IMG/VR virus record: IMGVR_UViG_3300044646_002092
Location: 32,001 to 96,000 of that record
Reading direction: 5' to 3' (one strand)
Source of the DNA: a virus
Length of the DNA: 64,000 nucleotides
Below, in pieces: positions 16,689-63,994 of this stretch. Below the pieces are notes generated by a model. That model was not told the origin of the DNA. It did not search any database and saw only the letters and a program-made list of their open reading frames with translations. Positions within the stretch are counted from its first letter, which is position 1, and every line of letters begins with the position of its first letter. A program made the translations under genes and the position numbers.

Positions 16689-16927
16689 TGGAACCTGAAG
16701 TAATTCAAATGTTTTACATTTACCCTGAAGGTTGCGAAGACCTATATCGCTACTCAGTTATCGGCGAACTCCGCGATGTAGGTACTAACGGTGTCACTAT
16801 CGACTTCGAGGAACGCGCGAGTGTAGATGACCCGTACAAAGCTCAGCAGACAATCTCATTTACGGTAGAAGAAGCTCAGGCACTACAAAAAAGTATCGGA
16901 CTAATTCTTAAGCAATTTAAGCGCTAG
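16688..16927 (+). CDS. hypothetical protein
   Basis: 79-aa ORF, translationally coupled. Confidence 0.65.
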   Translation: MEPEVIQMFYIYPEGCEDLYRYSVIGELRDVGTNGVTIDFEERASVDDPYKAQQTISFTVEEAQALQKSIGLILKQFKR

Positions 16928-17379
16928 TAGGGAGGCTCTTGTTCAGGCTGCTGACCCTGCGGTAGTAACCCTCCTAGCATCGGAAGGACGTACATCCCCG
17001 TCATCGCGACACCTCCAAGTCCAGCAGCAGCTTTCCCGTATCTTCCAGCAGTATTTTTAGCTTTACCCCAAAATCCTTTTACTTCAGCAACAGGGCTTTG
17101 AGTGTTCAAATTTTTAACTACTTGTTGGTTAATATTCTTAGTAACTTGTTGTTGGGGTAAGTTTTGGTTATTTTGATTTAGTCCCTTAGCAGCATTCTCT
17201 CTTAATTTCGCAGATTGTTCTGCCGCTTGCCTTTTATAATTCTCATAGCCTTCACGGTCATTTTTCATTAACCACTGAGCATCTTTGCCAGTTTGAGATT
17301 GTGTACCAAAACTGTTTTTGGTTGCACCAAACCCTTCTCCTGTAGTTCGATTGTACGCAAAATTTACAAAGTGTTGCAT
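16924..17379 (-). CDS. Q/N/G-rich protein starting MQHFVNF (FANF-tag family), putative virion internal protein
   Basis: isolated - strand ORF with the N-terminal motif and a Gly-rich hydrophobic C-terminus. Confidence 0.6.
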   Translation of the reverse strand: MQHFVNFAYNRTTGEGFGATKNSFGTQSQTGKDAQWLMKNDREGYENYKRQAAEQSAKLRENAAKGLNQNNQNLPQQQVTKNINQQVVKNLNTQSPVAEVKGFWGKAKNTAGRYGKAAAGLGGVAMTGMYVLPMLGGLLPQGQQPEQEPPY

Positions 17380-17430
17380 TTCTTCTTTTCTGTGTTATTA
17401 TTTACAACAATTCTACCACCTGATAAACAT

Positions 17431-17733
17431 ATGTTATTAGAACCACCATCTGAAGAGCCTATTCATAATTTTGACCTATCCCTTCTTAACAAGCGTATTG
17501 AGGAGGTAAAAACTGCCACCAGAGCAATTCCTGAACAAGATTATGTAGCTACCAAATTAGCTACAGAATTTTTTATGAATAAAGTGTTTCCTGTTTTAAA
17601 TGTCCCCCAAATTCACCAAATGCTGCAAAATCCTGAGTTCGTAAAAGCTCTCGGTAATCTTATTGGAACTGGATTCCAAGGGGCATATATCCTTGGAAAG
17701 ACTTCGCGGCGGAATCTTGACCTTAATGAGTAA
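17431..17733 (+). CDS. hypothetical protein
   Basis: ATG at 17431 within the 17293 ORF. Confidence 0.55.
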   Translation: MLLEPPSEEPIHNFDLSLLNKRIEEVKTATRAIPEQDYVATKLATEFFMNKVFPVLNVPQIHQMLQNPEFVKALGNLIGTGFQGAYILGKTSRRNLDLNE

Positions 17734-17932
17734 AATAATCGCCTCATATCGAGGCACACCGATGAAATCGACAGTTGGGCTACCAATTGGTGTTCGACTG
17801 TTCCCTCCAGACGCAAACTACTCTTATAGCCGTGTGGAAATTGAAACAAAAACGCAGTTGACACCCGAACAAGAGCGCAAACTGTTTAAAATACTTGGTG
17901 ATTGGTTCCTACAACTGAAAAAAGAGGTCTAA
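17726..17932 (+). CDS. hypothetical protein
   Basis: ATG at 17726 overlapping the previous stop codon. Confidence 0.55.
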   Translation: MSKIIASYRGTPMKSTVGLPIGVRLFPPDANYSYSRVEIETKTQLTPEQERKLFKILGDWFLQLKKEV

Positions 17933-17933
17933 C

Positions 17934-18203
17934 ATGAAATTATTTCGCATTGTTCGCAACGAATATTACAACGAGTATGGTCAACTGGCTAGAACCTATT
18001 GGACTGTCCTAGAGAAACGCAAATTTCTTTGGTGGTATTACTGGAAGACAGTTGAGCATCAAGCTGATTGGGACTACACTTCACCTATAACCTTTAAATC
18101 GAACGAAGATGCAAATGAATTTGTTCAGGAAGTCTTTGTTCTTGGCAAACCTTATTCTCAGTTCGTAGAAATTATTGAAGAGGAGTTCGCAATGTCAACC
18201 TAA
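17934..18203 (+). CDS. hypothetical phage protein
   Basis: 89 aa, KFLWWYYW pattern similar to ORF 26905. Confidence 0.65.
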   Translation: MKLFRIVRNEYYNEYGQLARTYWTVLEKRKFLWWYYWKTVEHQADWDYTSPITFKSNEDANEFVQEVFVLGKPYSQFVEIIEEEFAMST

Positions 18204-18211
18204 AGATAGAG

Positions 18212-18241
18212 TTGCAGAAAAGAAAGCTTCGATGCTAAAAT
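18212..18241 (+). promoter_or_regulatory. sigma70-like promoter of nrdJ
   Basis: TTGCAG-N18-TAAAAT with an extended TG; preceded by GATAGAG. Confidence 0.45.
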
Positions 18242-18270
18242 AGATAAACCAAAACGACAAAAAAGATATA

Positions 18271-20391
18271 ATGCAAGTACTTGAATTTGGCTCTGACACA
18301 GACCAGCAATACATTTCAATTGTAAAACCAAAACTCCTCACCCAAAATTTTCTTTCCAAATACATCGATAAACAGCCTCCTTTTGGTCAACTTGGCTTGA
18401 TTGTATACCTGCGAACTTATTCTCGATTCATTCCCCAATTGAAACGCCGAGAAAAATGGTGGGAAACCTGTCTTCGTGTTGTCGAGTATTCTTTCTCTCT
18501 TCTACCTGATAAACCCCGTAAACCCTCTTACTTTACCCAAGATAAGCAGAAAGAGGAAGCTGAAGCTCTATTCGATACTCTATTCAATTTGCGTGGATTT
18601 ACGTCTGGTAGAACTCTTTTTGTAGGTGGTTCTGAAGCCTCAAGACTATACCCTTCTAGCAATTTCAATTGCAGCTACACGAATGTAGATAGTCTCAAAA
18701 GCTTTGCAGACGCGATGTATTTACTTCTTCTTGGGTGTGGCGTTGGTTACAGCGTGGAATCAACGCACGTATCTAAACTCCCTAAATTTAACCCAAACAT
18801 TAAAGTCTCGTTCAAACCTTACGAACCAAAAGAAAAAAATTCCCGTAAGCAAGAGACAGACGTAACTGGATACACAATTACTGTTGGAGATTCCAAAGAA
18901 GGTTGGGTTAGTGCTTTAGTTTATTTCTTGGATTTACATTCTAGTTCATCCACGCAACATATCACTCTAAATTTTGACAGTGTAAGACCAGAGGGTGAGC
19001 GATTAAAAACTTTTGGTGGTCGCGCTTCTGGCTACATTCCTCTTCAGACTATGTTTGAGGAAATTCATGACCGTATCATTTCCACTGATAATGGTGTAAT
19101 TGATTCTGTGGCTGCAATGGACATTATGAACTCTATTGCCAAAGCGATTGTAGTTGGGGGAGTACGCCGCAGTTCTCAGATTGCATTTGGGGATGTCGAT
19201 GATACTAACTTCCGCGATGCCAAGAAAGATTTGTGGTCGAATCCAGAAAAAGCCAAGTACAGCACGACTAGAGTTCTATCAAACAACTCGGTACATCTTT
19301 GGGAAAAGCCTAGTTACGATAGACTTAAAGAACTTTTCGAGACTATCAAGAATAATGGCGAACCTGCACTTTCTATTGCTGGTAACGCATCTCTAAGACG
19401 CGAAAACTATTTTGGCAGTAACCCTTGCCATGAGATTCTGCTAGACAATTTAGGTGTTTGTAATCTAACGACACAAAACTTGCTTAGTTTTGTAGACGAG
19501 TTTGGAAATTTTCTATTCGATGCTGCAATTAAGGCTATCAAGTTACTTACAAGAGTTGGTTCCCGTATCACTCTTGTAGATATGTGGGACAAAGATTGGG
19601 ATTACATTCAAAAGCGTGACCGACTTCTTGGTGTGAGTCTTACAGGTATTGTAGAGGCATATAACGCCCTTAACGACACTGAAAAGCTGAATTGGGAGTA
19701 TTACATCACAGAACTCCACAAAGCCGCTAGAACCGAAGCAGACCTCTACCACGACGCTCTTGGAATCCCCCGCAGCTATCTAGTGACGACACTCAAGCCT
19801 GAAGGGACATTATCACAACTACCAACAGTCTCCTCTGGTGTCCATGCACCGTATGCCCCTTACTATACTCGTAGAATCCGTATTAGTAAGCGCGACCCTA
19901 TTGCTAACGCTCTTTTAGATTTAGGTCTTGTACCTGTACCTGAGAATGGTCAAGGAAACGATATTCATGCAGACGAGTGTAATACTTGGGTATTCTCTTT
20001 TTCTGTTAAGACGAAGGCACAAATCAGGTCAATCGATGAATCTGCAATTGAGCAACTTGAGCGTTATAAGTTCTTCATGAAAAATTGGGCTGAACATACT
20101 GTTTCCGTTACCATCACAGTTGCAGAAAATGAATGGGATGGGGTTGTTGACTGGGTTTGGCAAAATTGGGAATATTGTATTGGCATTGCTTTCTTACCTA
20201 GATTTGACCCAGCCGAACTTGATTCCCCTTACCCAAATATGCCTTACGAGTCTTCAACCGAAGCAGATTACCGACCACTTGAAATATCCGAATCGCAATT
20301 AGTCTCTCTCATTTCTAAGTATGAAACTGAGTACGAAGAATATGAACTAGATGCGTCTTGCGGAGGATTAACAGCTTGCCCCGTTCGTTGA
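18271..20391 (+). CDS. nrdJ: class II adenosylcobalamin-dependent ribonucleotide reductase (monomeric RTPR type)
   Basis: SNFNCS, GGVRRSSQI, SNPCHEI, CNLT, KPEGTLSQL and C-terminal CGGLTACPVR; no beta subunit gene nearby. Confidence 0.92.
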   Translation: MQVLEFGSDTDQQYISIVKPKLLTQNFLSKYIDKQPPFGQLGLIVYLRTYSRFIPQLKRREKWWETCLRVVEYSFSLLPDKPRKPSYFTQDKQKEEAEALFDTLFNLRGFTSGRTLFVGGSEASRLYPSSNFNCSYTNVDSLKSFADAMYLLLLGCGVGYSVESTHVSKLPKFNPNIKVSFKPYEPKEKNSRKQETDVTGYTITVGDSKEGWVSALVYFLDLHSSSSTQHITLNFDSVRPEGERLKTFGGRASGYIPLQTMFEEIHDRIISTDNGVIDSVAAMDIMNSIAKAIVVGGVRRSSQIAFGDVDDTNFRDAKKDLWSNPEKAKYSTTRVLSNNSVHLWEKPSYDRLKELFETIKNNGEPALSIAGNASLRRENYFGSNPCHEILLDNLGVCNLTTQNLLSFVDEFGNFLFDAAIKAIKLLTRVGSRITLVDMWDKDWDYIQKRDRLLGVSLTGIVEAYNALNDTEKLNWEYYITELHKAARTEADLYHDALGIPRSYLVTTLKPEGTLSQLPTVSSGVHAPYAPYYTRRIRISKRDPIANALLDLGLVPVPENGQGNDIHADECNTWVFSFSVKTKAQIRSIDESAIEQLERYKFFMKNWAEHTVSVTITVAENEWDGVVDWVWQNWEYCIGIAFLPRFDPAELDSPYPNMPYESSTEADYRPLEISESQLVSLISKYETEYEEYELDASCGGLTACPVR

Positions 20392-20422
20392 TACAATACA
20401 CACAACAACTGAGAAAGACATC

Positions 20423-21255: not shown

Positions 21256-21256
21256 T

Positions 21257-21430: not shown

Positions 21431-21431
21431 C

Positions 21432-24959: not shown

Positions 24960-25388
24960 ATGGCTGACCCTCGCCGTTACAGTATCTCAATCATCGAAAA
25001 CTTTTCAGACAAATCACTACACGAAATTGCACTTGTCGTTACTGAATCTGTATTTTACATTAAACCAGACGAATTTATTTTAGGGCAAACTAAGGAACTT
25101 ACACTTGGCACTGAATTTTTATATACCGAAGAGCCTATTACTTGGCGCGAAGCAGAAAAAGAACTTGCGCCAGCTTTTCGAGATTTTCCTGATGCTTGCT
25201 TCTGTGTTTTTGTCAGTGATGGTGAAGATGGCGGTCAATATCGTACATTGTTCTTCAACGGTAAGGCAGTGACGCAGTACCCTGAAATTCGTTATCCAGA
25301 GTTTCGCTTGAATGAGTTTGAATACGAGACTTCGAGCAAGAAGAGTTTGTTTAGAGATATTATTTTGGAGAGCGTACAGGATGCTTAA
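24960..25388 (+). CDS. hypothetical protein
   Basis: ATG at 24960. Confidence 0.65.
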   Translation: MADPRRYSISIIENFSDKSLHEIALVVTESVFYIKPDEFILGQTKELTLGTEFLYTEEPITWREAEKELAPAFRDFPDACFCVFVSDGEDGGQYRTLFFNGKAVTQYPEIRYPEFRLNEFEYETSSKKSLFRDIILESVQDA

Positions 25389-25857
25389 ATCGATGCCTCA
25401 AGGCGCTAACATTCTCGACGTTGACTTAACTAAGCCTGAGAACTGCATCTTTGTACCTGTGAACTGTGTAGGGGTGATGGGTAAAGGTTTGGCGCTCGAC
25501 TTCAAGAAAAAATATCCCGATTTAGTTTGGCAATACAACAATCTTTGTGAAAAGAATTATCTTAGAGTGGGTTTCCCTGAGTTTATTTCTTTTGATGGCT
25601 CATTTTTAAATATTGTCCTTTTCCCAACTAAAAAACATTGGAAGGACTTATCTCAACTTCATTGGATTAAGCAGGGATTAATAGAATTAGCTACAAGCCC
25701 TAACTTAGACTTTCAGCATTGGCGCAAACAAACTCGCAACCTACATATACCTAAACTTGGTTGTGGTCTTGGTGGTCTTAATTGGGCTGATGTACGCCCT
25801 TTGATTGAACAGTTTGCAGAAATGATGCCTGAACATGAGGTGTATTTATATGAATAG
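25381..25857 (+). CDS. macrodomain ADP-ribosyl hydrolase (DarG/Poa1p-like)
   Basis: VNCVGVMGKGLALDFK, LFPTKKHWK, IPKLGCGLGGLNW. Confidence 0.85.
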   Translation: MLKSMPQGANILDVDLTKPENCIFVPVNCVGVMGKGLALDFKKKYPDLVWQYNNLCEKNYLRVGFPEFISFDGSFLNIVLFPTKKHWKDLSQLHWIKQGLIELATSPNLDFQHWRKQTRNLHIPKLGCGLGGLNWADVRPLIEQFAEMMPEHEVYLYE

Positions 25858-25860
25858 AAT

Positions 25861-26310
25861 ATGTTAGGAAGTTTACCAACTGAACCAGAAGAAGTTAAGT
25901 TAGCCATCATTGATGATGAACTTAATAAACTTTATATTGATACTCAACATCTATTACAGAAATACAGTTCTCTTGTTTCTGAAAATACCCCACTCCTAAT
26001 CAACCAAATTAAAAAAGCTCTCAAAGATTTAGACTTTATTTTTGAAAATCTGAGTCTCGAAAGTGAGGATTGGAAAGTAAGTTCCTGTAAGCGGGAGTAC
26101 AAATACTGGTACAAACAATTTACACATTTCGATGAGCTACTTATTCCCGAAGTTATTGAAAAATATCTTGAAGAGGAGTTGGAAAAAGAAAGGCAAAGAG
26201 AATTAGAACGTGAAAAACGTTACCAACTACAAAAAGAAGAGGTTGAAAAAGCAAAATTAAATAATAGATGGATTGACGAAATGCGCCGTACCCACTACAA
26301 TACTTTTTAG
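25861..26310 (+). CDS. hypothetical protein
   Basis: 149-aa ORF. Confidence 0.65.
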   Translation: MLGSLPTEPEEVKLAIIDDELNKLYIDTQHLLQKYSSLVSENTPLLINQIKKALKDLDFIFENLSLESEDWKVSSCKREYKYWYKQFTHFDELLIPEVIEKYLEEELEKERQRELEREKRYQLQKEEVEKAKLNNRWIDEMRRTHYNTF

Positions 26311-26331
26311 TAATACTTAAGGAGCAAAAAG

Positions 26332-26613
26332 ATGTCACGCACCAAGAAGCACAGAGACTTGTTTTTTCTTCAGTTTCTTCACAAACTTATCAAGTCCATC
26401 GGTAGCCCTTTTACCCATCCTCGCGCATCTCGTTGGGCTAAAGTACGTAGCAGAGTCAGCAGACAGTATGGAGGCTCTAACTGGGGCGATAATCAGCGTG
26501 TAGATACCAAATACAACTTCACACCCAAACATCGTGCAATGAAGCGTGCAGCCCGTCGAGAAGCTTTGGAGCAAGCACAGCAACAACTTGAAGAATACGA
26601 ATATGGAGACTAA
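26332..26613 (+). CDS. hypothetical basic protein
   Basis: 93-aa ORF with SD-like AGGAG. Confidence 0.6.
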   Translation: MSRTKKHRDLFFLQFLHKLIKSIGSPFTHPRASRWAKVRSRVSRQYGGSNWGDNQRVDTKYNFTPKHRAMKRAARREALEQAQQQLEEYEYGD

Positions 26614-26908
26614 CCTGCGTTGGCAAGATAATGGACAATTTTCTTACGCTTGGTTCGGTATTACTAAGCTCAGCGTCGAGTATGAAGGGTCTATGCATCC
26701 AAGAGGCTCAGATTTACCTACTGGCTACCGAGTAAGCGTAGAAGGTTACAAAAAACGCGAACTCAAGCATCTTTTCTCTAAGCGAGACAATGCAAAAATT
26801 GCTGCTGAACGTCTACTCTGGAAAATTGTAAACGAAATGCACCAAGACCTATCTCAATATTCTTGGGATACGCACAACAAAGAAGAAGTTAAATGGGTGG
26901 TGAGATGA
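26603..26908 (+). CDS. hypothetical protein (distant paralogue of 29684)
   Basis: LRW...AWFG..K.SV...F...AKIAAERLL. Confidence 0.6.
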   Translation: METNLRWQDNGQFSYAWFGITKLSVEYEGSMHPRGSDLPTGYRVSVEGYKKRELKHLFSKRDNAKIAAERLLWKIVNEMHQDLSQYSWDTHNKEEVKWVVR

Positions 26909-36157: not shown

Positions 36158-37554
36158 AAGTATTGCTTAATTTGTTCAAATTCACTACCAAGCCAATTCC
36201 AAAAACTCACATTGTCCCAGCTATACACCCTTTTGGGCAACGGCTGGGACATCACACTGAAGGCACTCGCGCCACTTTCAAGGTAAATACCGTTACATAG
36301 TCCTAAAATACCGCCAGCTATAGAAAAGAGATTGGAGTTTGTTGCGATTGTAGTTGCGTAAGAAGTTACAATGTTGATGTCTGCCGAATTTACTCTGAGA
36401 CGTAGTTCTGTAGCTGTTTTTTGAACCCAAATGTGTTGCCAAGCATTTGTGGGCGCGACCCACGAAGTTGAGATAACTGCACTGCCATTGATAGCCACCT
36501 CAAGATTATTACTGCTCGTTTTTTTAAGCGCAAACACACCATTCTTTTCTGCCAACGTCGCTTGACGACCTGCGGTTGGGGTCGTAAAATAGCAAAAACA
36601 ATTGAAAGTGAACTCATTAGGAAAAACAACATCTTCATAAGATATAGATGTACCCGCAGAAGCTACTAAACACTCGGTTCCAAATAATTTCTTTTCTGAC
36701 TCATATTCAATCCCCGACATTGATGCGATTTTTGAATTGCTGCTCTGGTCACTCAACCTACCATTGAAATCTAAGTGTAGGAGGCTCGAATTATTACTTG
36801 GGGATACATATGACATTAAATCTACTGCAACGTCTGGAATCCTCAAAACGAGACTATTAGAATAAATGATAGAATTTGGCTTGAGAGTTGTAGGAATCGA
36901 AATATCCGCCTCGAACCAAATGTTGTTGCTTGCATCAGTAATTCTTGCGAGATTTATTGTGCTATTAATACTCGGTAAAGTCTGCGTGTTACCATACTCG
37001 AAAAATATCTCGCCAAGTGTACCGATTTCTTTTTTTGACCATTTGCTCGGTGTCAGTGCTAGTGTGGCTTGCAGCGTATTGTTATTGTTGTAATACTTGG
37101 CGCTCAGCGCGCTGGGAAAGAGCGAAGCTGTACCTTTGAATAGTAAGTTAAGTATAGCGTTGCTAAGCGTAGCCGTGCCAAAGTCCAGTGTCAGTGTTAA
37201 GCCTGTACCAGAGTAGAGAGTTAGTTCGCTGCCAGCCTCTATGGTGACATCAGAAAATGCAGCATTAGCAACGATAATGCCGTCAGAGGTAGTAAGGCGG
37301 AGGGAGAGGGGTAGCGCATAGGTTGAGATGGCAGCTCCGAAATTGATGTCGAGTGTGTTAGTGCAAATGTTGTTTGTAATTATCCAGTAGCTTGCGTCTA
37401 GATTGAGCGCTGAGATGCCAAACAGTGTGTTGGTGATGTTAGTTCCGCTTGTGTCATGCAGAGTAGCTAGAATTGGCAAAGAAGCTGCTGTGATGGTTTG
37501 CTGCTTTATTACTTTTTCTGTGATATCGACGCAAGTGCTGAAGAGTGTGGTCAT
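36154..37554 (-). CDS. virion structural protein with a C-terminal LamG-like domain
   Basis: LLHLDFNG...EFTFNCFCYF...WQHIWVQK...LRVN; S/T-rich. Confidence 0.65.
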   Translation of the reverse strand: MTTLFSTCVDITEKVIKQQTITAASLPILATLHDTSGTNITNTLFGISALNLDASYWIITNNICTNTLDINFGAAISTYALPLSLRLTTSDGIIVANAAFSDVTIEAGSELTLYSGTGLTLTLDFGTATLSNAILNLLFKGTASLFPSALSAKYYNNNNTLQATLALTPSKWSKKEIGTLGEIFFEYGNTQTLPSINSTINLARITDASNNIWFEADISIPTTLKPNSIIYSNSLVLRIPDVAVDLMSYVSPSNNSSLLHLDFNGRLSDQSSNSKIASMSGIEYESEKKLFGTECLVASAGTSISYEDVVFPNEFTFNCFCYFTTPTAGRQATLAEKNGVFALKKTSSNNLEVAINGSAVISTSWVAPTNAWQHIWVQKTATELRLRVNSADINIVTSYATTIATNSNLFSIAGGILGLCNGIYLESGASAFSVMSQPLPKRVYSWDNVSFWNWLGSEFEQIKQYF

Positions 37555-38003
37555 TCTAAAGTAAATTGAGGGACAGGTCTTTTTATTTTTATCCCACTCT
37601 TGATAGTGGGTACAGGTTCTTCCATCATTCCGCCAAACCCTTTAAATGGGTCTTTGCGGAATCCTAGATACCCCGTAGGACTAGCTGCTGTGTCAGAAAC
37701 TTTGCGAATATCTGTAAATCCTTCTGAAATTGGTATACGTTTTGAGGTTGAGTATTTCTCAGAGGGCATATATACTTTAGCTTTTGGGTTATCGTTCTTA
37801 TATTTGTTTCCGTCCCAATACATAGATTGCCTAGCTAAATACATGGGTGTATCATCAGCCCAACCGCCCATAACTTTTTGATGAGTCTCGATGTCATATC
37901 CTGTATTGTTCAGATAGTTTTTGTTCCCTTGGTCTAATTGGAACTGTTTTTTCTTTAACCTATTAACAGTTCTAGTAATTCCGAAATCAGCAAAGTGTTG
38001 CAT
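37551..38003 (-). CDS. protein starting MQHFADF (FANF-tag family)
   Basis: N-terminal motif shared with 17379 and 56059. Confidence 0.6.
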   Translation of the reverse strand: MQHFADFGITRTVNRLKKKQFQLDQGNKNYLNNTGYDIETHQKVMGGWADDTPMYLARQSMYWDGNKYKNDNPKAKVYMPSEKYSTSKRIPISEGFTDIRKVSDTAASPTGYLGFRKDPFKGFGGMMEEPVPTIKSGIKIKRPVPQFTLE

Positions 38004-38872: not shown

Positions 38873-39520
38873 ATGGAAGATAATTTAGCTCTCGTAGCAC
38901 AAGTAGAAAAAAGCCTGTGGCGTAACCCTACAGATGAGGAGGGTGTTTTGCAACTGTTTAGTGATGCCGATAGACCATTAGCTAGTGTCCTTGTAGGTGG
39001 TTTTGTCAGTATGCAAAAGCAGATGGCGGAAATCAAATCGCTTATCACTACTATTGCAAGTAACAAGACCAACTCAGTAACACCGACAGAGTTAGGTATG
39101 TTCTTCAGCATGGACGCTTACAAGTACCTTATTGAAGACTTTAGCCTTATAGAGGACAAAGTGGCTTACAAAGGTGAAATATGCGGTCAGAGTGATTCGG
39201 TGATTTTGCAGTTATCTATACGGCTTGAAGATTTCTTTGGTTCTAAGGATGTTCACTTTGCTAATTTGTTCAAGGGATTGCGCCGAGCTTTGACTAAACG
39301 TGGTAATGTATTGCAAGATTATAAACTACTCCTACAAAATGAGCTAGATGAGTATTTCAATCAACACAAGAAAGCAAAACGAATTAAGTTCAAGACTATC
39401 GCAGACATTTTTTCTGAACTGCCAGACATGACAGAGCAAAAACTGAAACTGTGGCTTGAAGAATTAGGTTACAGACCTAAGCCCGATGTAAACCGAGTAT
39501 TGTGGTATACAGACAAATAA
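38873..39520 (+). CDS. hypothetical protein
   Basis: 215-aa ORF directly after the repeat region. Confidence 0.7.
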   Translation: MEDNLALVAQVEKSLWRNPTDEEGVLQLFSDADRPLASVLVGGFVSMQKQMAEIKSLITTIASNKTNSVTPTELGMFFSMDAYKYLIEDFSLIEDKVAYKGEICGQSDSVILQLSIRLEDFFGSKDVHFANLFKGLRRALTKRGNVLQDYKLLLQNELDEYFNQHKKAKRIKFKTIADIFSELPDMTEQKLKLWLEELGYRPKPDVNRVLWYTDK

Positions 39521-45628: not shown

Positions 45629-46090
45629 TTACTGAATATAACATAAAAATAATCCGAGTGAGTCTGCGGCATGATTCTCGTCTTTTGTGAATACTTTACT
45701 GGGAAACACTTTTTGTACAGCAGCTATAACATCCTCCTTCTCGCTTTTTCCAGAGCCAGTTACAATTTTTTTCATCTCGGTCGGTGTGTAACTTTTTTCT
45801 ATTAAGTCCCGCTTTTTAGCTAAACACCGCATTATGCCAATAACTTGATTCAACTTAGCCCCTACCTGCCCTTTCATAATAGGCTCTTCGTAAACAAACA
45901 CGCTTGGACTATATTTATTCAGTAGTTGCTCAAAGTGCAACGAGTACTCAACAAGTTTGTCTGTAAAGCCTTTACTCTTTGTAATTATGTTTTCACAATA
46001 GAGTAAATCTAATTGCCCTTTATCGTTAAAGTCAACTATACTAAATCCGCCAGTCGCGTATCCTACATCCCAACTCAGCACTCTTGTCAT
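45629..46090 (-). CDS. ruvC: RuvC Holliday junction resolvase
   Basis: SWDVGY, VYEEP, YTPTEMKKIVTGSGKSEKEDV, HAADS. Confidence 0.9.
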   Translation of the reverse strand: MTRVLSWDVGYATGGFSIVDFNDKGQLDLLYCENIITKSKGFTDKLVEYSLHFEQLLNKYSPSVFVYEEPIMKGQVGAKLNQVIGIMRCLAKKRDLIEKSYTPTEMKKIVTGSGKSEKEDVIAAVQKVFPSKVFTKDENHAADSLGLFLCYIQ

Positions 46091-46124: not shown

Positions 46125-47030
46125 ATGACACTATCGCTCGATTATATAGCCACAAACTCACTTCCCTGCCGTAGTTATCTGGACTTCACTAATGTTGCAT
46201 ACACCTCTATAGTTGGAGCAACCTTCACTCAATTAAACCTCACTGGCAACACAGATTACGATTTTATCTCTACAGGTCTATCTAATCATCCAACAAGGGG
46301 CGACTTTGGCATCCAATTTACTTCTGCCCAGAAACTATCTCCTCGCGTGTCAGGTATCATTTCAGGTGCTTCTAGTTATTCTTTACTCGTTGTGTCGAGA
46401 AATTCAGACAACTCGTTACTAAAAATAGGCAAAACCAACCCAAATCTACCGAAACTGCTAGAAATTGACTATACAGCCACTAACTTTGCACAGAATTACT
46501 CACGACTGAACGTTGCTGACCGAGAATTAACACTTGGCGACCTCGAAACTACACAAGTTTGCCTACTTTCACATGATGTTGTTACTGGAGTGACCAACAC
46601 ATCGATAAATTTGACTGATTTTCAACAAAATACCAAACTTGATGCTGGATATATGTTGCCAAACTTGTCCTCATTTGTTTTAGGCGAAGGATTTGGCGGG
46701 GAACTACTTAATTTCTTACTTTTTGTGCCAGCTATTGAAAATATACATCTTTTGGAGCTTGGGCGACGGGTATCAGATTATATCCCGCAATCAGAACTAA
46801 AATTTGACAAATTGCTACTGACAACTGAGAGCAAACTAGAACTGGCAACCACATTCTTTTCTGCACCCCGAATCATGTACAATCTACCGCTAAAAATAAA
46901 AAACCTAGAGACAAACTCTAAGCTATTATTTAGTAGTAATTTAATAGTTATTGCAAGCTATTTATGGGACAACCTTAGTGGTGCTAATTGGGATGCAACC
47001 TCTGAGGCGTTATGGGACTCAATGGGCTAA
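46125..47030 (+). CDS. putative virion structural protein
   Basis: 301 aa; C-terminal WDNL...WDAT...WD repeat. Confidence 0.5.
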   Translation: MTLSLDYIATNSLPCRSYLDFTNVAYTSIVGATFTQLNLTGNTDYDFISTGLSNHPTRGDFGIQFTSAQKLSPRVSGIISGASSYSLLVVSRNSDNSLLKIGKTNPNLPKLLEIDYTATNFAQNYSRLNVADRELTLGDLETTQVCLLSHDVVTGVTNTSINLTDFQQNTKLDAGYMLPNLSSFVLGEGFGGELLNFLLFVPAIENIHLLELGRRVSDYIPQSELKFDKLLLTTESKLELATTFFSAPRIMYNLPLKIKNLETNSKLLFSSNLIVIASYLWDNLSGANWDATSEALWDSMG

Positions 47031-47705
47031 CTAATATACGAACCCGTTGTAACGTCGCACTTTGAAGTTGGCAAAGGGGGAGGTATTCATAGAAGTATTT
47101 GCAGACTTCATTGGTTTGGCTCCACGACCAAACCTATTATCTAAAGGAAGTACGCCATCTGCTTCTGCTCTACTTAGGTCAGTAATTCCATTTTGCTCGT
47201 AATTTTGTTTCGCATTTTTTCTTGTCTTATTAACAAAATCTTGAGTTGCATCTTCTGCTGGTACTGCAACTGGTTTAGCCGCAGGTAACTGAGCTTGCTG
47301 TTTAGGTGCGTTAGGTGTAAATGGCTGATTGTTAATCGGTGTCTGAGTTACATTTGTAGCGGAAGCATTAGTAGTAGCTGGCAACATAGCCTGATTACCG
47401 ACTTGCCCTGCTTTACGTGCTTGCCAAGCATTCTTTAGTCTAGAACCGCCATAACCCGCAGCACCACCTAAAGCAGCACCACCACCGACTTGACCAGCAA
47501 GATTACCAATCGATTTGTCATCGCTACCAAGATAGTTAATTGCACCGACTCCTGCGCCGATACCAGCACCAAGTTTAGCGGCTCCTCCAGATGTAGAGAG
47601 CGCTTTACCAGCTTTAGTGCCAAGTTGCCCTGCCAATCCTGCCCAATCGACAGCAAAATTGGCGTATTTAGGATTTGTTGCTAATGCGTATGCGGAAATT
47701 CTCAT
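47031..47705 (-). CDS. glycine-zipper protein with two FANF-like tags
   Basis: KYANFA near the N-terminus, PFANFK near the C-terminus; GAGIGAGVG and GGAALGGAAGYGG. Confidence 0.6.
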   Translation of the reverse strand: MRISAYALATNPKYANFAVDWAGLAGQLGTKAGKALSTSGGAAKLGAGIGAGVGAINYLGSDDKSIGNLAGQVGGGAALGGAAGYGGSRLKNAWQARKAGQVGNQAMLPATTNASATNVTQTPINNQPFTPNAPKQQAQLPAAKPVAVPAEDATQDFVNKTRKNAKQNYEQNGITDLSRAEADGVLPLDNRFGRGAKPMKSANTSMNTSPFANFKVRRYNGFVY

Positions 47706-53354: not shown

Positions 53355-56054
53355 ATGACACTAATTAGACCATCAACAATATATTATTATCGAACTAAAG
53401 CAGTAAATTTGAATGGAGAATCCCCATACTCAAATATAGTTTCAGTAACAACTCCTGCGTCCTCACTTGGCATTGGCGTTACTCCTCCTTCCCCATCTCA
53501 GCCCTTAATCATAACGGTAGAAAAGAATAGCAACTCTATCAGGGTAGAATTGCAAAAAGCTGCTCCTAACGAGTACCTAAAAGAGTTAAAACTTGATGTA
53601 TCGGTAAACGCTGACTTCAGCGCACCACTTTACTCTAATCTAACGTTTTTACTAACGCAAAATATTGCGGCGACAGAAAAAGAAACTCTGGCGCTTACTA
53701 TTGGCGGCTTAGCGGCAAATACGCTTTATTACTACCGCTTGCGTTTCTCAAATGCAACTGGACTTTCGGCGTGGACTTCAGCTTCACTCTCTACTACACC
53801 AAATTTCCCTATTCCAGACCTCCTCGGCACAACCAATCTCACAGCTATTGCAGCTCGACTAAACTGGGGCAAAGTGACTGGCGCAACTACATATTTTGTA
53901 GATTTATCTACAAACATTGGCTTCACTTCATTAATCCTTAATAATGTCAATGCAGGAGATGTCAGTTTTCGAGATGTAGGGTCACTTACGGCTGAAAATC
54001 AATATTACTATCGTGTAAGGGCTTCGGATGGCACAACTACCTCGGCTAGCAGCGATGTAGTGACTTTTACGACACTTCGAGATGTAGAAACTTATGATGA
54101 GCAATTTCAGAATCTCGCAACACCGACAATCAGCAACATAACAGATATTTACCTCACTTATTTTTCTGTATACTGGGGCAAAGTGGCTTTAGCGGATAGT
54201 TATAATGCTCAAATTTCAACTACATCTGACTTTAGCTCGATTACTCAAACCGTAAGTACCAAAAATAACTTTGTCAATTTCACAGGTCTAACGGCTGCAA
54301 CAATCTACTATGTTCGAGTACGGGCAATCTCTGTTTGGCAAACTACTACGTATTCAGCCACACAAGTCGTCACAACGCTTTCCCTAAATACTTCATTAAA
54401 TCCACCACAACTTCTTACACCAACTACAATAACCTCGAAGAGCATTTTGTTCCAATGGGTTCTACGCAGCTATGCCACTCGTTATTTGTTTGAGCTAAGC
54501 ACTTCATCAGTTTTTGCTTCTAGTGCTTACTCGACTATTGTAGGTAATGTTGGGTCTTTGCTACTAAATGAAGGTATTAGCCCCGCAACAACCTATTATT
54601 CACGTATTAGAGCGCTCAATTCTAGTCAGTCCTCAGATTACTCCAACTCTGTCACTACAACGACCTCAGCAGCCCTTACAAGCATAACTGGAGTCACTAC
54701 AACTAGTATTACCGATACTTCGGCAGTTATTGGCTGGACTTTGAATGGTAGCTACACCGATTATTTGCTTTCAGTGTGGAAAACAGAGTCAAATGCTTAT
54801 TTAGGAGTCAACTTCTATCGTAATAAGAGCCTTGGGAACACTAACACGCACACAATTGACCTATTCTTAGAGCCAAACACCAATTACAGCTACACAATCG
54901 CTGGAAAAACAGCTTCTGGGGATACTTTAACGACTCCCGTACAGACTTTCTCGACCAAAGCGGCTGCACCAATACTTCAACTAGCTAAAAATCTGCTCAC
55001 TTGGACTTACAATCTCGACAATCTCGAAGTTAGCACTGATTCTGATTTCAAATTCTTGCTTAAGGGGTATCCAAGAAGCGTAGCGAACAATGGCAGCTTC
55101 AATGCAGAGAATTTGCTTGACTCTAGTACCAATTACTATATTCGCGGCAACTTTGAGGGGGGCATCTACTCCAATATAGTCAGTACATCAGCTTTGGCGG
55201 TTTACAAAGGCATTATTGGAAAGACTTCCTTTTCTGCCTTCTGGAAACGTAATGCTGGAGCTACTTCATACAGTGTTCAACTAAAAGTGCTAGATACTGG
55301 CAATTATGTGCCTGTAAGTGGTTTCACGTTCCCTAAAAATGTTGGTGACGTTAGCAGCTACACATTTGAATCTCTTTCTGCCGACACACAATATCAGGTA
55401 ATTATATATGACTCAAGCTCAAACGTTTCTATCCCGTATTTATTCAAAACTAATCTGTTTAGCGATACAGAGGAACCTACTACTGCATCTCTTACGATTC
55501 CTACAGTAACTCTTGACGGAAGTGCTGATTTTGACCGAGCTAGTGTAGTGCTAAGTGGTTATTCCAAGTATCTGCTCAATTTGGCGCGAGATAGTGCATT
55601 TACGCTCGATAATACTTATTTTGAGAGCAGTTCCAATAATATTGAGCTTCTGCTTAAGCCTAATCGCACATATTACCTACGTGCTTACGGGTATAACGGA
55701 GATGACCGCAGTACTGACCCTTCAACTACCCTTACAATCAATACACCCATTGAACCATATACTGAGCTTACTATCTCTTCAGCGCCAAGCATTACTAATA
55801 TCAATATACTTGATGAGTCACAAGTCGAACTAACTTTTTCGCAAGTAGTTAACGCAACTGACTACACGCTTGAGATTAGTAGAGCAAATACCTTTACAAT
55901 TCTTGAGGAGCTGAGTGTTACAAGGTCTGCTGATAACAAATTCTTAATCTTCGGATTGAGTGGAACGACTGTATATTACGCTAGACTGTATGCTTTCAAT
56001 AGCACCAAAATCTCTGCTTACTCATCTACAACTACGGTGGACACAACCCCATAA
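53355..56054 (+). CDS. fibronectin type III repeat virion protein
   Basis: repeated W...Y...L...T.YY.RVRA FN3 pattern. Confidence 0.8.
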   Translation: MTLIRPSTIYYYRTKAVNLNGESPYSNIVSVTTPASSLGIGVTPPSPSQPLIITVEKNSNSIRVELQKAAPNEYLKELKLDVSVNADFSAPLYSNLTFLLTQNIAATEKETLALTIGGLAANTLYYYRLRFSNATGLSAWTSASLSTTPNFPIPDLLGTTNLTAIAARLNWGKVTGATTYFVDLSTNIGFTSLILNNVNAGDVSFRDVGSLTAENQYYYRVRASDGTTTSASSDVVTFTTLRDVETYDEQFQNLATPTISNITDIYLTYFSVYWGKVALADSYNAQISTTSDFSSITQTVSTKNNFVNFTGLTAATIYYVRVRAISVWQTTTYSATQVVTTLSLNTSLNPPQLLTPTTITSKSILFQWVLRSYATRYLFELSTSSVFASSAYSTIVGNVGSLLLNEGISPATTYYSRIRALNSSQSSDYSNSVTTTTSAALTSITGVTTTSITDTSAVIGWTLNGSYTDYLLSVWKTESNAYLGVNFYRNKSLGNTNTHTIDLFLEPNTNYSYTIAGKTASGDTLTTPVQTFSTKAAAPILQLAKNLLTWTYNLDNLEVSTDSDFKFLLKGYPRSVANNGSFNAENLLDSSTNYYIRGNFEGGIYSNIVSTSALAVYKGIIGKTSFSAFWKRNAGATSYSVQLKVLDTGNYVPVSGFTFPKNVGDVSSYTFESLSADTQYQVIIYDSSSNVSIPYLFKTNLFSDTEEPTTASLTIPTVTLDGSADFDRASVVLSGYSKYLLNLARDSAFTLDNTYFESSSNNIELLLKPNRTYYLRAYGYNGDDRSTDPSTTLTINTPIEPYTELTISSAPSITNINILDESQVELTFSQVVNATDYTLEISRANTFTILEELSVTRSADNKFLIFGLSGTTVYYARLYAFNSTKISAYSSTTTVDTTP

Positions 56055-56058: not shown

Positions 56059-56736
56059 ATGATGAAAAACTTCGCTAATTTCAATCTTAGACCTGAAAAA
56101 ATAAATCTTTACGATAGCAACATAAAAAAAGTTGACTATGTTCCGTCAATGGGGCAAGTTATCATACGAAATTATCCTGAAGATGCTTTAGACCAAAAAA
56201 ACGCTAGAGAGGAATTTCATAATGCAAAGAAAGCTGAAAAAACTAGAGTAGTACCTCAAGTTGGTAAAGATGTGGTAAAACAATCTGACGGAGCAGTGGC
56301 ATATACTCAAAAATATGGTGGGCGAATGTTGGAAGATTATATTGATGATATGTCCCCTAAGCAGAAGTATAAACTTGGTAATCAATTAGGGCGAAGCCAA
56401 AGCCGACTAGTTGAACAAGCAAATCTCTATCATGACGATATATTCGAGAGAAATGTCACTATACCTAATCCTAAGAAGAGCAAAGCTTATCTCATAGATA
56501 ATGCTTCACTTCAAAAGGTTACGCCAGACAACATAAAATACGCCAGAAAAGTAATTGGACTACCTGATATTGTAAGTAAAGGATTCACTAAAGGTATACG
56601 ATTTAACAGTATGAAACACTTCGCTAACTTTGCAAATATTTATCAGACTGGACTGCAAAATCTGATTAGTCCTGTGGTAGAAAAAGAAGCTAAGAAATAC
56701 GTCAGAAAAAAGAAAGAAGAGCAGAAAGAGGAATAA
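56059..56736 (+). CDS. protein-kinase-like fold protein (RIO/Bud32/APH-like) carrying two FANF tags
   Basis: hinge-like YTQKYGGRML, HxDxxxxN loop HDDIFERN, YLIDN; MKNFANF at the start and MKHFANF at 56611. Confidence 0.6.
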   Translation: MMKNFANFNLRPEKINLYDSNIKKVDYVPSMGQVIIRNYPEDALDQKNAREEFHNAKKAEKTRVVPQVGKDVVKQSDGAVAYTQKYGGRMLEDYIDDMSPKQKYKLGNQLGRSQSRLVEQANLYHDDIFERNVTIPNPKKSKAYLIDNASLQKVTPDNIKYARKVIGLPDIVSKGFTKGIRFNSMKHFANFANIYQTGLQNLISPVVEKEAKKYVRKKKEEQKEE

Positions 56737-61044: not shown

Positions 61045-61115
61045 GCGGTTATGGTATAAAGGAATTATTCTTGGCTTCCACCCAAGAGATGAGATATCGT
61101 AATTCTCTAACCGCT
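61045..61115 (+). tRNA. tRNA-Gly(TCC), atypical T-loop
   Basis: GCGGTTA/TAACCGC acceptor; CTTGG-CTTCCAC-CCAAG. Confidence 0.7.
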
Positions 61116-61118
61116 TAA

Positions 61119-61191
61119 TCCTCTATAGCTCAGTTGGTAGAGCGTCGCGCTGTTAACGCGAATGTCCTTAGTTCGAGTCTAAGTGGAGGAG
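61119..61191 (+). tRNA. tRNA-Asn(GTT)
   Basis: canonical cloverleaf; CTGTTAA loop. Confidence 0.9.
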
Positions 61192-61194
61192 TTT

Positions 61195-61265
61195 GGGTCA
61201 TTAGCTCATGGGTAGAGCATCTGGCTTTTAACCAGACCAAGACGATTCGAGCGCGTCATGACCCT
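61195..61265 (+). tRNA. tRNA-Lys(TTT), T-stem mismatch
   Basis: TCTGG-CTTTTAA-CCAGA; GGGTCAT/ATGACCC acceptor. Confidence 0.75.
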
Positions 61266-61342
61266 TTGTGATTAGCTCAGTGGATTAGAGCATTCCCCTT
61301 CTAAGGGAAGAGTCGTTGGTTCGAGTCCAACATCACAAGCCA
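61266..61342 (+). tRNA. tRNA-Arg(TCT) with encoded CCA
   Basis: TTCCC-CTTCTAA-GGGAA; TTGTGAT/ATCACAA acceptor then G-CCA. Confidence 0.88.
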
Positions 61343-61345
61343 AAT

Positions 61346-61417
61346 GGCTCTCTAGCATAATGGTATTGCAGCTCTCCTGTAAAGAGCAGATTGTCAGTTC
61401 GACTCTGACGGGAGCCT
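61346..61417 (+). tRNA. tRNA-Thr(TGT) with C33
   Basis: GCTCT-CCTGTAA-AGAGC; GTCAG-TTCGACT-CTGAC T-arm. Confidence 0.75.
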
Positions 61418-61459
61418 TAAATTTTCGCGCTATACTAAGTAAAACACGGGAATTATATT

Positions 61460-61723
61460 ATGTATTACGCCGCACTCTTAGTATTTGTTGCATTAGTCGT
61501 ATTTTTTGCTACTCCAGCCTTGAAAAAAAGCGACGATAATCCAACTCCTCTAGACTTTCGAGAGATTCAGTATAAACTGGGCTTCCCTAAAACTGGTGGT
61601 CAAGGAGGAGGAAGTAGATACACTCCCCCTAAACGCAAGCCTCCTGAAAGAACTCAACCTACAGGAAGTCGCGTTGAAGATGAAGTTGTAACCAACCCTG
61701 AAAATAAACAAGGGAAAAACTAG
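61460..61723 (+). CDS. small secreted or membrane-anchored Pro/Gly-rich protein
   Basis: N-terminal hydrophobic helix, then PKTGGQGGGSR and PERTQPTGSR. Confidence 0.6.
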   Translation: MYYAALLVFVALVVFFATPALKKSDDNPTPLDFREIQYKLGFPKTGGQGGGSRYTPPKRKPPERTQPTGSRVEDEVVTNPENKQGKN

Positions 61724-61780
61724 TCCAAAAAACCATTGGGGAAGAAAGTTTCGTCCGACACTCCAAATTAATTCTTAATA

Positions 61781-63676
61781 CTAAAAAAATCCTGAAGGAA
61801 ATAGGCTAGGTTCTTGACTCATTCTCAGTTTCTGCTCTGGATTAGGTGAACGCACAAGTATAGACTCGGTATCACTAGCTGCTATCGGTCTATACCCAAT
61901 ATTGAAACTACTGACGCTACTACCGCCCAAAGCTCCAAGAATTTGCGTATATATTGCTATGTACGCATTTTGTCTATTATTTGGGTTAGTGCTATCAGGA
62001 GACGAGAAACTTGGCGCTAAACTAAAACTAGGAGCCGAAGGCACAACAGAATTGTCGTAAAAACGGTCGCCAGACGATGAACTTGACCCTATGCGCTCTG
62101 GGTTGACTTGATAGTAGTAACAGCCTTCGTGAGAAAAAAGCGGAGGCATACTATATCTTAAAACAAAGCTAAACTCTCCTCGACGAATAGGGAAGTAGCC
62201 AGTCTCAGGATTTGGCGGCGCATCCCAAGTTGTTATAACTTGATTTGGTAATGTTTTGAATAGTTCTCCATAAGGCGCACTACCCTCTACAAATAATGTT
62301 GATTTTCTCTCTAAGCCTGTAGCTCTATCAACAAAAAATGTGTATTGATTCTTAGTTAAAGGATATACATCAAGAATTTGCCCATAAGCCCACCAATACT
62401 TATATTGCCACTCATAACTGACACCACGTTTACCTACAGAGCTTTTTATTTCGTATGGATGATTTATTTTTCCTTCTGCCGTACCCATATCTAGTCGCAG
62501 GAGATTTGCACCTTCTTTTGAAGCTGCAAGTACACCAAAAGGATTAGGTCGAATTACATTTGATTTCTGAGAATACTTTTGCAAACTAAATCTAGCTTGG
62601 TCAGTGCCGTAGTCAGGTGATTGACGAGGAGAAAATAAAGTATAGTTAGTATTTCCTACATAAGTCGCATCTGAATTGCAAAACTCAGTAATATTTTTTT
62701 CTGTCAGCAACGCAGATTGCCTTGGACGTAATACAAGTTCAAGATTATAATCTGAAATTCTGTTGTGGACTATAACTCCAGTATTTTCCAATAACTTGTC
62801 ATCATTACTAACAGAGTATCTTCTCCACCTATATCTGAGTACTGATTGACCTCTGCACCAAGTATAGGAATAAGTAGGGGTGACACTGTATGACACAACA
62901 GTAAAATTGACACCATTAACAGTTGAGATTTTTTTATAGCGCTCATCACTAGCTGGAGCTACCCCTTCAATGGGTATTCTATCTTCTGGGTCAATTACCA
63001 TACAAGCCCAGATGCCTCCACCAAGATAGTTTAAGTTATCTAGAGAGAAGTTTGATTTAAAGCACTTTGGCAGTCCTACTGTATCAAGATTTAGTTGATA
63101 AATAGTCCTCTCCCCAATATTGATTCCGTCATTTTGAGGTGAGATGTCCGAATTATCGATGCTAACTAAAGTCCAATCTACCTCCTTAAGACCATCTTGC
63201 TTATTTTTGGTAGATTTTACATATGCAATGTGAGCAGACCATCCTTCTCGATTGGATGAATTGGCTGAGACGTATGCGCGTATCTGAGTCTGGTAACTAT
63301 CACAGAAAAAAGTATAGATTGGTTCATTAGTGCCCCTTAAATCCTCATCAATATACACAGAAAAATAATTAATAAGTTCACCATCAGACTCTGGGAACTT
63401 AACAGGAGCTGGCAGAGGAAACTTAGCAAGTATGGCGCTTTTTTCGAGGTTGGTTTGAGTTATTCTTAGACGCGAAATCGCCGTGGTTAAGGGAAGTCCC
63501 GTAAGTCTACGAACTGTGATGAGTTTGAATAGCGACTCATTCGGTGTCCTTTGCTTATTCCGTTTTTGTACCTTAGTGTCAACCGTTGATTGATTTGAGA
63601 CTAAAATCCACTCGGAAGTTTGCGAGTCCCTCAGATATACGCGACCCGCATTATCCCTTTTAACAAATCTTCCCAT
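61781..63676 (-). CDS. large hypothetical protein, probably virion
   Basis: 631-aa ORF. Confidence 0.65.
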   Translation of the reverse strand: MGRFVKRDNAGRVYLRDSQTSEWILVSNQSTVDTKVQKRNKQRTPNESLFKLITVRRLTGLPLTTAISRLRITQTNLEKSAILAKFPLPAPVKFPESDGELINYFSVYIDEDLRGTNEPIYTFFCDSYQTQIRAYVSANSSNREGWSAHIAYVKSTKNKQDGLKEVDWTLVSIDNSDISPQNDGINIGERTIYQLNLDTVGLPKCFKSNFSLDNLNYLGGGIWACMVIDPEDRIPIEGVAPASDERYKKISTVNGVNFTVVSYSVTPTYSYTWCRGQSVLRYRWRRYSVSNDDKLLENTGVIVHNRISDYNLELVLRPRQSALLTEKNITEFCNSDATYVGNTNYTLFSPRQSPDYGTDQARFSLQKYSQKSNVIRPNPFGVLAASKEGANLLRLDMGTAEGKINHPYEIKSSVGKRGVSYEWQYKYWWAYGQILDVYPLTKNQYTFFVDRATGLERKSTLFVEGSAPYGELFKTLPNQVITTWDAPPNPETGYFPIRRGEFSFVLRYSMPPLFSHEGCYYYQVNPERIGSSSSSGDRFYDNSVVPSAPSFSLAPSFSSPDSTNPNNRQNAYIAIYTQILGALGGSSVSSFNIGYRPIAASDTESILVRSPNPEQKLRMSQEPSLFPSGFF

Positions 63677-63994
63677 TTAGAAATTTACAAAGTGCTGGAA
63701 ATTACTACTGAAGCCGCCGTACTGACCAACCTGAGCATTTTGTTGACTTTTCCAGTTACCAACACTAGTTTTTCGACGAATCACACCGTTTGCGTCATAG
63801 AACTCATCTGGGGCAAGAGGTTTTTGAGGATTTCTAGGTGCTTGTTGCTTACTCATACCACGACCCACGCTGGCGCTTGCAATTGCCTCCTGCCTGTTCA
63901 AGCTAGGAGGAGCATTCTGCACTACTGCTGCCCTCTGGTCACGAGTCAGCGATAAAGGAGAAGCGTTTAAGGGAGAATTTCCCCAAGTCGGCAC
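63677..63994 (-). CDS. Q/A-rich protein ending in FQHFVNF (FANF-tag family); may extend beyond the window
   Basis: the C-terminal hexapeptide QHFVNF is identical to residues 2-7 of the 17379 ORF. Confidence 0.55.
   Translation of the reverse strand: MPTWGNSPLNASPLSLTRDQRAAVVQNAPPSLNRQEAIASASVGRGMSKQQAPRNPQKPLAPDEFYDANGVIRRKTSVGNWKSQQNAQVGQYGGFSSNFQHFVNF

Follow-up and report, generated by a model that had tools for sequence, protein, structure and literature searches.

Phages of the clade that includes Pseudanabaena phages Pam2 and PA-SR01 carry, on a set of otherwise unrelated proteins, a common peptide of seven residues that is best written [M/F/V]-x-H-F-x-[N/D/H]-F. We describe this peptide tag here from a window of 64,000 nucleotides, the whole stretch of DNA analysed, which corresponds to bases 32001-96000 of one 116,444-bp viral contig (IMG/VR record IMGVR_UViG_3300044646_002092), and from relatives of that contig; coordinates are those of the window unless they are marked as genome positions. 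Proteins that bear the tag are found in purified Pam2 virions, and in our estimation it is fairly probable that the tag acts as a portable, position-independent docking motif by which diverse, fast-evolving basic proteins would be recruited into the virions of Pam2/PA-SR01-like cyanosiphophages. Parts of the contig are ~83% identical in DNA sequence to the freshwater siphophages Pam2 (142.9 kb) and PA-SR01 (137 kb). The contig is incomplete, with a tape-measure gene that runs off one end, where it is cut at base 116442.

The evidence that carries this reading comes from the Pam1-Pam5 paper, which lists for every Pam2 open reading frame (ORF) whether its product was identified by mass spectrometry in purified particles (PMC9382816, Table S2). 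When a scan for the motif is mapped onto the ORFs of that table, 10 of the 11 tagged proteins turn out to be detected in Pam2 virions, as compared to 17 of the 180 other ORFs (Fisher one-sided, p = 6e-9), and the enrichment holds among the 72 Pam2 genes on the late (structural) strand (p = 5e-5). The detected bearers are gp39, 41, 42, 44, 46, 57, 118, 186, 187 and 189. They make up 10 of the 27 detected Pam2 virion proteins, or 11 if one includes gp146, whose tag is degenerate in Pam2 and canonical in its PA-SR01 orthologue. Because large putative tail proteins (gp36, gp43, gp45, gp47 and gp70) went undetected in the same virions, the data also suggest that the tagged proteins are not low-copy components of the particle. 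An initial annotation of the window, made from the sequence alone, had proposed that the tag marks virion-packaged proteins; this interpretation is supported in part, namely as far as association with the virion is concerned.

Recurrence of the motif is not a matter of chance. All of the copies cited in the initial annotation were recovered when the window was scanned again, and their frequency was compared with expectations from amino-acid composition and from 1000 within-protein shuffles, using the contig proteome (a crude set of 173 ORFs and 32,602 residues). Ten copies of the core F[AV][ND]F were counted where 1.0 would be expected, an enrichment of ~10-fold (shuffle maximum 5), which is so far above the level set by composition that chance is excluded. 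The bias toward protein starts is stronger still: the core lies within the first eight residues of six proteins, as compared to 0.02 expected and a shuffle maximum of 1 (~300-fold N-terminal enrichment), and six copies adjoin the start methionine. Position 5 of the tag is tolerant and accommodates A, V, T, S, I, L or K, and the tag often has a further A-[N/D]-F unit behind it or runs on into a basic extension such as FGYVKQANKQLKR. Position 2 is always large (Q, K, E, I or R). Methionine aminopeptidase leaves the initiator Met in place when the second residue is large, so the Met of N-terminal tags should be retained, which fits the presence of a conserved Met, or of Phe or Val, at this position in the internal and C-terminal copies. 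The argument that selection acts on the peptide, which the annotation had drawn from the differing codons of a few copies, held up when 20 tag copies from two genomes were counted, since synonymous codons at the fixed H, F and F are split about equally: CAC/CAT 10:8 for His, TTC/TTT 10:10 for Phe-4 and TTT/TTC 11:9 for Phe-7. The DNA upstream of the tagged genes has no motif common to all of them, and some copies lie inside genes or form their final seven codons. Together with the codon counts, these observations rule out that the similarity stems from a promoter, from a recombination site or from an element of translation initiation.

The bodies to which the tag is attached are diverse. An all-vs-all BLASTP comparison (E below 1e-4) of 47 tagged proteins from this genome, Pam2 and viral contigs, carried out with the tag and the next 20 residues masked, yielded 12 clusters, at least nine of them with two or more members, and the families have no detectable similarity to one another. 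That the bodies are unrelated, as first proposed, is thus true of at least nine families and untrue of the pair 37551-38003 and genome 102033-102533, which are paralogues. Searches of the tagged proteins with Pfam and PHROGs gave nothing significant, except for the SNF2 helicase domains of a tagged PA-SR01 protein. Placement of the tag varies across the families, and it thus behaves as a movable short linear motif, situated at module boundaries and no part of any fold.

One family that shows this mobility is built on a protein-kinase fold. Its member in the window, 56059-56736 (+), encodes 225 residues with a minimal protein-kinase fold and carries two tags, MMKNFANF at the N-terminus (56059-56082) and MKHFANF directly behind the kinase domain (56611-56631). 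An AlphaFold2 (AF2) model of the protein has a mean predicted local distance difference test score (pLDDT) of 78 and a predicted template modelling score (pTM) of 0.70; residues 11-180 are confidently modelled, and beside this kinase core both tags (residues 1-10 and 183-196) have a pLDDT below 50. Foldseek matched the model to protein kinases at E ~1e-7, with the best mutual coverage for human PRPK, of the Bud32 type (template modelling score, TM, 0.62 by both lengths), so that the early description of this protein as kinase-like is borne out by its fold. In an alignment of the family, the M, H, F and F of the tag are invariant alongside the catalytic H-x-D-x(4)-N, and a D-N further on is kept as well. 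It is a rare family, for which a profile of kinase domain plus tag retrieved 23 relatives from 1.84 billion proteins and a word-based homologue search with the kinase only 2. Most members carry the tag behind the domain, and two, P0006 and P0009, carry it ahead of the domain: P0006 has an N-terminal tag and ends right behind the kinase, and P0009 starts with MYHFVNY. In P0004 the order is kinase, tag and then two glycine-zipper modules. The motif thus changes its place with respect to one and the same domain. When viral and metagenome contigs were scanned, P0009 had no relative among them, and the single viral-contig match of P0006 is a known contig of the clade. The window protein is a paralogue of the family of Pam2 gp189, which is detected in virions, and is a candidate injected kinase of a cyanophage. 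The phage has two paralogous minimal kinases of Bud32/PRPK size, the second of which, encoded outside the window at genome 3684-4718 (-), is a kinase-like protein with an internal MQHFTHF.

Other families show other arrangements of tag and body. In the glycine-zipper family, 16924-17379 (-) is a lone late-strand gene amid genes of the + strand and encodes a Q/N-rich protein of 151 residues (pI, or isoelectric point, 9.7) with MQHFVNF at its N-terminus (17359-17379) and a glycine-zipper-like segment at its C-terminus. It is the orthologue of virion-detected Pam2 gp118, which carries two copies of the tag where its orthologues carry one. A second member, 47031-47705 (-), is a glycine-zipper protein of 224 residues in which the tag is weak (KYANF, 47655-47669); the 16 residues at the end of the protein, SPFANFKVRRYNGFVY (47034-47081), include the SPFANF of its C-terminal end and are invariant in the family of its virion-detected orthologue, Pam2 gp57, and the middle of the protein that precedes them is hypervariable and rich in indels. 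A third, outside the window at genome 198-884 (-), starts with MKHFANF. G/A-rich glycine-zipper segments, which had no match in Pfam, turn up as a module on varied tagged bodies, among them the C-termini of kinases and a gp46-like protein in one genome (G004), as well as in stand-alone proteins. This recurrence suggests that the module may belong to ejected proteins that insert into membranes or form pores. The disordered family includes 37551-38003 (-), whose 150 residues begin with MQHFADF (37983-38003) and the basic extension GITRTVNRLKKK and are for the most part predicted to be disordered (AF2 pLDDT 52), and its paralogue outside the window, genome 102033-102533 (-), which starts with MEHFANF; Pam2 gp41 and gp44, both virion-detected, are also paralogues of the former. 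An ESM Atlas look-up of 37551-38003 returned low-score, uninformative rows only. Two islands are conserved in this family, the N-terminal tag and a C-terminal DIRK..GYLGFRxDPYKGYGGMMEE, given for 37551-38003 as DIRK..GYLGFRxDPFKGxGGMMEE. In 37551-37670 (-) of the window and in its homologues, the second island follows the pattern DIRK..D.AAS.TGYLGFR.DPYKGYGGMMEE within tagged proteins that are otherwise hypervariable and disordered; a further docking element and a site of processing are both conceivable roles for it.

In two families the tag is C-terminal. The protein encoded by 63677-64072 (-) has 131 residues, of which the window holds the C-terminal 107 (63677-64000), the ORF start lying beyond its edge at 64072; it has a pI of 11.0 and ends in FQHFVNF-stop (63680-63700). 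It is the orthologue of Pam2 gp46, which is detected in virions, and the exact C-terminus F-x-H-F-x-N-F hardly varies among 26 homologues, the rest of whose sequence is 60-80% identical. One gp46-like protein runs past its tag, now internal, into a glycine-zipper module. The second C-terminal family, present in two relatives, ends in ...SFKHFKNF. Finally, the tag is found on an SNF2-type helicase, N-terminally in one IMG/VR genome (G003) and internally in PA-SR01, where it comes just ahead of the helicase domain, at about residue 131. This SNF2/DEAD-type gene (PA-SR01 25081-26877, -; locus L060 in G003) is located in the head-module region on the strand opposite the other tagged genes; in PA-SR01 its true start may lie downstream of the annotated one.

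Despite this diversity of bodies, the bearers have several properties in common. An isoelectric point of 9.2-11.5 is found in 23 of 24 tagged proteins from three genomes, as compared to a proteome median of ~6.2, and only 18-28% of the other proteins in these genomes have a pI above 9; basic bearers would be suited to co-packaging with DNA. No cysteine occurs in the eight tagged proteins of this genome that were examined. Tagged proteins also diverge rapidly: the medians for identity between reciprocal-best orthologues are 44-58% for tagged proteins and 77-90% for other genes, the tag itself being fixed, and many tagged proteins have no orthologue at all. At the level of sequence, fast divergence around a fixed tag looks like the pattern typical of host-interaction cargo. 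A basic charge, a disordered chain, rapid turnover and a body that is enzymatic or membrane-active would all be expected of proteins that are packed with the DNA and delivered to the host, for which the T4 internal proteins are the established example (PMC3012670).

The scan for the motif was extended, as the annotation had suggested, to the full proteome and to relatives, and it turned up the three tagged genes outside the window noted above and copies throughout the clade. Seven Pam2/PA-SR01-like genomes contain ~5-12 tag copies each; by tagged proteins, the counts are 11 for Pam2, ~10 for PA-SR01 and ~5-10 for each of four complete 142-148-kb IMG/VR genomes of the clade. Among 50,697 records of isolate phages, the extended tag is present in two, Pam2 and PA-SR01, and the IMG/VR contigs with multiple copies are all 142-148-kb clade members or fragments of such genomes. 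The same DNA pattern had at least 120 matches in 596 Gb of bacterial genomes, and the 80 of these that were displayed are all single and scattered over taxa, as is background. A full-text literature search for the motif strings found no relevant paper, nor did a literature search find a structural paper on Pam2, and the motif is not remarked on in the papers that describe Pam2 (PMC9382816) and PA-SR01.

Several look-alikes were set aside. NNFVNF at 54264..54281 (+), inside an FN3-repeat tail-fibre-like protein (53355-56054), is incidental and has no copy in the Pam2 and PA-SR01 orthologues, and MNFANF of an acidic 73-residue ORF (genome 29993-30214) is not a member, the ORF having no conserved orthologue. 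Short ORFs that end in ...C[HD]MQHFANFN[VI]TS-stop in three unrelated viral contigs of ~40 kb were rejected as members; these ends (IMG/VR loci L008, L010 and L028, 38-42 kb) are conserved among the three contigs, lie in very short frames and are probably unrelated to the tag. A JAB/MPN-like H-x-H..S..D pattern in Pam2 gp37 is not claimed as a domain, being without Pfam support. With regard to flanking DNA, a subset of the tagged genes is preceded, ~15-30 nt upstream of the start, by a sequence resembling GGTATACT-AGAAAT, or more fully GGTATACT(A/C)GAAAT(A/T)T, a possible late promoter or leader that is seen at 37900-37931 and 39075-39105 in Pam2 and at 46890-46922 in PA-SR01. GAYAGATR, which the initial annotation took for an early promoter, has 14 sites in the window (among them 3252, 4629, 8049, 15728, 23085 and 34790) against 7.3 expected, a weak (~2-fold) enrichment, and 9 of the 14 are on the + strand.

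How a tag of this kind might work can be outlined as follows. Disordered when free, it would attach itself to some conserved part of the particle during assembly, and the body would be brought in along with it. Positions 1, 4 and 7 may form one face of a short helix, or some other hydrophobic stripe, flanked by the conserved His and Asn/Asp. A conserved structural component would offer a groove to this stripe, and the likeliest partner belongs to the procapsid: its scaffold or core, its portal, or the inside of the capsid. The second A-[N/D]-F unit, or a basic stretch of the FGYVKQANKQLKR type, may often reinforce docking. As cargo, the virion would take up along with its DNA minimal protein kinases, glycine-zipper (putatively membrane-active) proteins, disordered basic proteins and, in some relatives, an SNF2 helicase, and it would then deliver them to the next host. 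We infer that the motif itself causes incorporation, that the site is the capsid interior and that the cargo is ejected into the host; the interior of the procapsid seems preferable to the tail because the cargo is basic, apparently abundant in particles and enzymatic. A more specific proposal, which we advance only tentatively and by analogy with encapsulins, is that the tag may be a seven-residue address code that loads a large and changing arsenal into a siphovirus capsid for injection, binding the shell or scaffold in the encapsulin manner.

A number of observations weigh against docking as the function of the tag, or limit the inferences that can be made from the proteomics. The latter reports presence or absence in whole virions of one relative, Pam2, rather than of the phage analysed here, and one tagged Pam2 protein, gp37, was undetected. 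The Pam2 list also includes untagged proteins that do not look structural, the RuvC-like gp59 (61451-61927 in Pam2, with 45629-46090 (-) in the window) and the 75-residue early-strand gp79 (76159-76386), which are either further packaged proteins or co-purifying contaminants. Their presence on the list means that abundant, sticky, basic late proteins could likewise co-purify with particles, and this is the main caveat on the proteomics. With respect to location, several tagged Pam2 genes sit among tail-fibre genes, which bears on whether the capsid or the tail is the destination. As regards the partner of the tag, the head module is missing from our contig: the head proteins gp3, gp15, gp19, gp20 (major capsid protein, MCP), gp22, gp23 and gp25, all detected in Pam2 virions, have no match in it.

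Of the alternatives to docking, the one that survives best, unlikely as we think it is, holds that the tag is chiefly a recognition or cleavage site of a maturation (prohead) protease and that other features of the proteins determine their loading. Processing of packaged proteins beside short conserved sequences is established in T4 and in giant phages (PMC3012670, PMC5694885, PMC10052503). For a cut between modules, the boundary of the kinase domain, where an internal tag lies, would be well chosen; ~20 residues behind several N-terminal tags there is an L-x-E (KRLNE, KRLYE, KRLQE), which resembles the site of the T4 gp21 protease; and the authors of the PA-SR01 paper report an HHpred match of ORF24 to the protease/scaffold protein I of phage Mu. 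This L-x-E is not conserved, however, being replaced by LYD or LND in other members and absent from 37551-38003. No protease or scaffold family was detected in the Pam2 head module by Pfam or PHROGs, and the PA-SR01 capsid protein (416 residues) was matched to a band of 47 kDa, its full predicted size. Where the tag forms the very first or last seven residues of a protein, there is almost nothing for a protease to remove, and it is hard to see what a cut would achieve if the tag had not acted as a handle beforehand; a handle is the role that makes most sense of such exact terminal placement. Finally, apart from the tag, the bodies have nothing in common that would account for their being found together in virions.

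Quite unlikely, in our view, is the possibility that the tag is a short linear motif that binds a single host hub protein after delivery or during infection, with virion association a separate matter or an artefact. Enzymes such as the kinase and the helicase must act in the host, fast evolution would fit host interaction, and a similar freedom of position is known from the clamp-binding motifs of bacteria, which sit in disordered segments at either terminus or in between. The consensus for binding to the beta-clamp is nonetheless QL[SD]LF or QLxLxL, on proteins of replication and repair, and x-H-F-x-[NDH]-F, on kinases, glycine-zipper proteins and disordered proteins, does not match it; glycine-zipper and wholly disordered basic proteins would be improbable clients of a replication or transcription hub in any case. 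The tag is restricted to one phage clade, and multiple copies were not seen among the displayed matches in bacterial genomes. A host hub also leaves unexplained why 10 of 11 bearers are in particles from which 163 of the 180 other ORF products are absent. Less likely again is a self-association "sticker" through which bearers would co-assemble with each other or with DNA, as an inner body, a plug in the tail lumen or a condensate. Many bearers are Q/N- or G/A-rich and predicted to be disordered, they are basic, and several carry two units (Pam2 gp118, 56059-56736 of the window, and the many in which HF..F is followed by A[ND]F). Most bearers have a single copy, on the other hand, and the strictness of H-3, of N/D/H-6 and of the 1-4-7 spacing suggests a specific interface more than a generic sticker; with virion incorporation as its outcome, the sticker overlaps with docking and differs from it only in the partner. 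It is very improbable that the similarity is a relic of common ancestry in one paralogous family or a DNA or RNA signal at gene starts, for even though some tagged proteins are paralogues and most copies are at gene starts, synonymous positions are randomised, copies also occur inside proteins and at exact C-termini, the upstream DNA has no common motif, and masking of the tag leaves no residual similarity between at least nine families, among them glycine-zipper proteins, a kinase fold and an SNF2 helicase.

Considered as a docking motif, the tag can be compared to several known systems for loading proteins into particles. The capsid-targeting sequence (CTS) of phage T4 is the sole conserved element of IPI-III and Alt, diverse, basic, fast-evolving proteins that are packaged, injected and counter host defences (PMC3012670). 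Here too, a short peptide alone is common to unrelated bearers, the bearers are in virions (those of Pam2, as presence or absence in whole particles), the tagged genes are scattered, and the cargo varies between relatives. The T4 CTS, however, is exclusively N-terminal, attaches to the scaffolding core and is cut off at L/I-x-E by the gp21 protease, whereas the tag is also found internally and at exact C-termini and has L-x-E behind it in some members only. The two also differ in sequence. The phage that carries the tag is a cyanobacterial siphovirus and no T4-like myovirus; no T4 head-protein families were found in the Pam2 head module with Pfam or PHROGs, and the Pam2 capsid protein matches only phrog_29, a general major head protein. 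With an unrelated sequence, unrestricted position, and neither a conserved protease site nor T4-like head genes, the tag system is not a member of the T4 type. In phage P1, an N-terminal segment directs the anti-defence protein DarB into the capsid, 30 residues being sufficient for this and 9 not (PMC9024508). That signal serves one protein, depends stepwise on other Dar proteins and has no reported consensus across cargoes, in contrast to the consensus of seven residues and ~10 cargo families seen here.

In positional freedom and modularity, the best match to the tag is provided by the cargo-loading peptides of encapsulins, short disordered segments at either terminus of unrelated cargo that bind a hydrophobic pocket inside a shell of the HK97 fold. 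The tag, too, is found as a disordered terminal peptide (pLDDT below 50), N- or C-terminal, on unrelated cargo, and by analogy it may likewise bind a shell, which for the tag is hypothetical. Encapsulins are DNA-free bacterial compartments, and their peptides have a different consensus (e.g., a GSL-type motif). Portal-associated domains of the MuF/SPP1 gp7 type and the ejection or inner-body proteins of giant phages represent other routes by which enzymes and toxins are loaded into heads for delivery (PMC5694885, PMC7411985). MuF is a folded domain, and the giant-phage route uses propeptides processed by a protease at an S/A/G-x-E site, as opposed to a movable peptide of seven residues.

Apart from the T4 CTS and the P1 DarB signal, we found no defined rules by which phages choose the proteins that they carry, and a movable consensus of seven residues over ~10 cargo families would be a second, independent example of such a loading rule. 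Should the more specific proposal of an address code prove correct, it would be the first defined consensus cargo tag outside the T4-like phages and would link phage heads with the cargo loading of encapsulins. For engineering, the tag would be a compact means of bringing foreign proteins into cyanophage particles, and ~40% of the detected virion proteome of Pam2, at present "hypothetical", would be explained as one functional class. If docking is indeed what the tag does, the packaged effectors of this clade could be read directly from genome sequence, and its kinases, helicase and putative membrane-inserting proteins are candidates for early-acting factors that counter the defences of bloom-forming Pseudanabaena or take over the cell.

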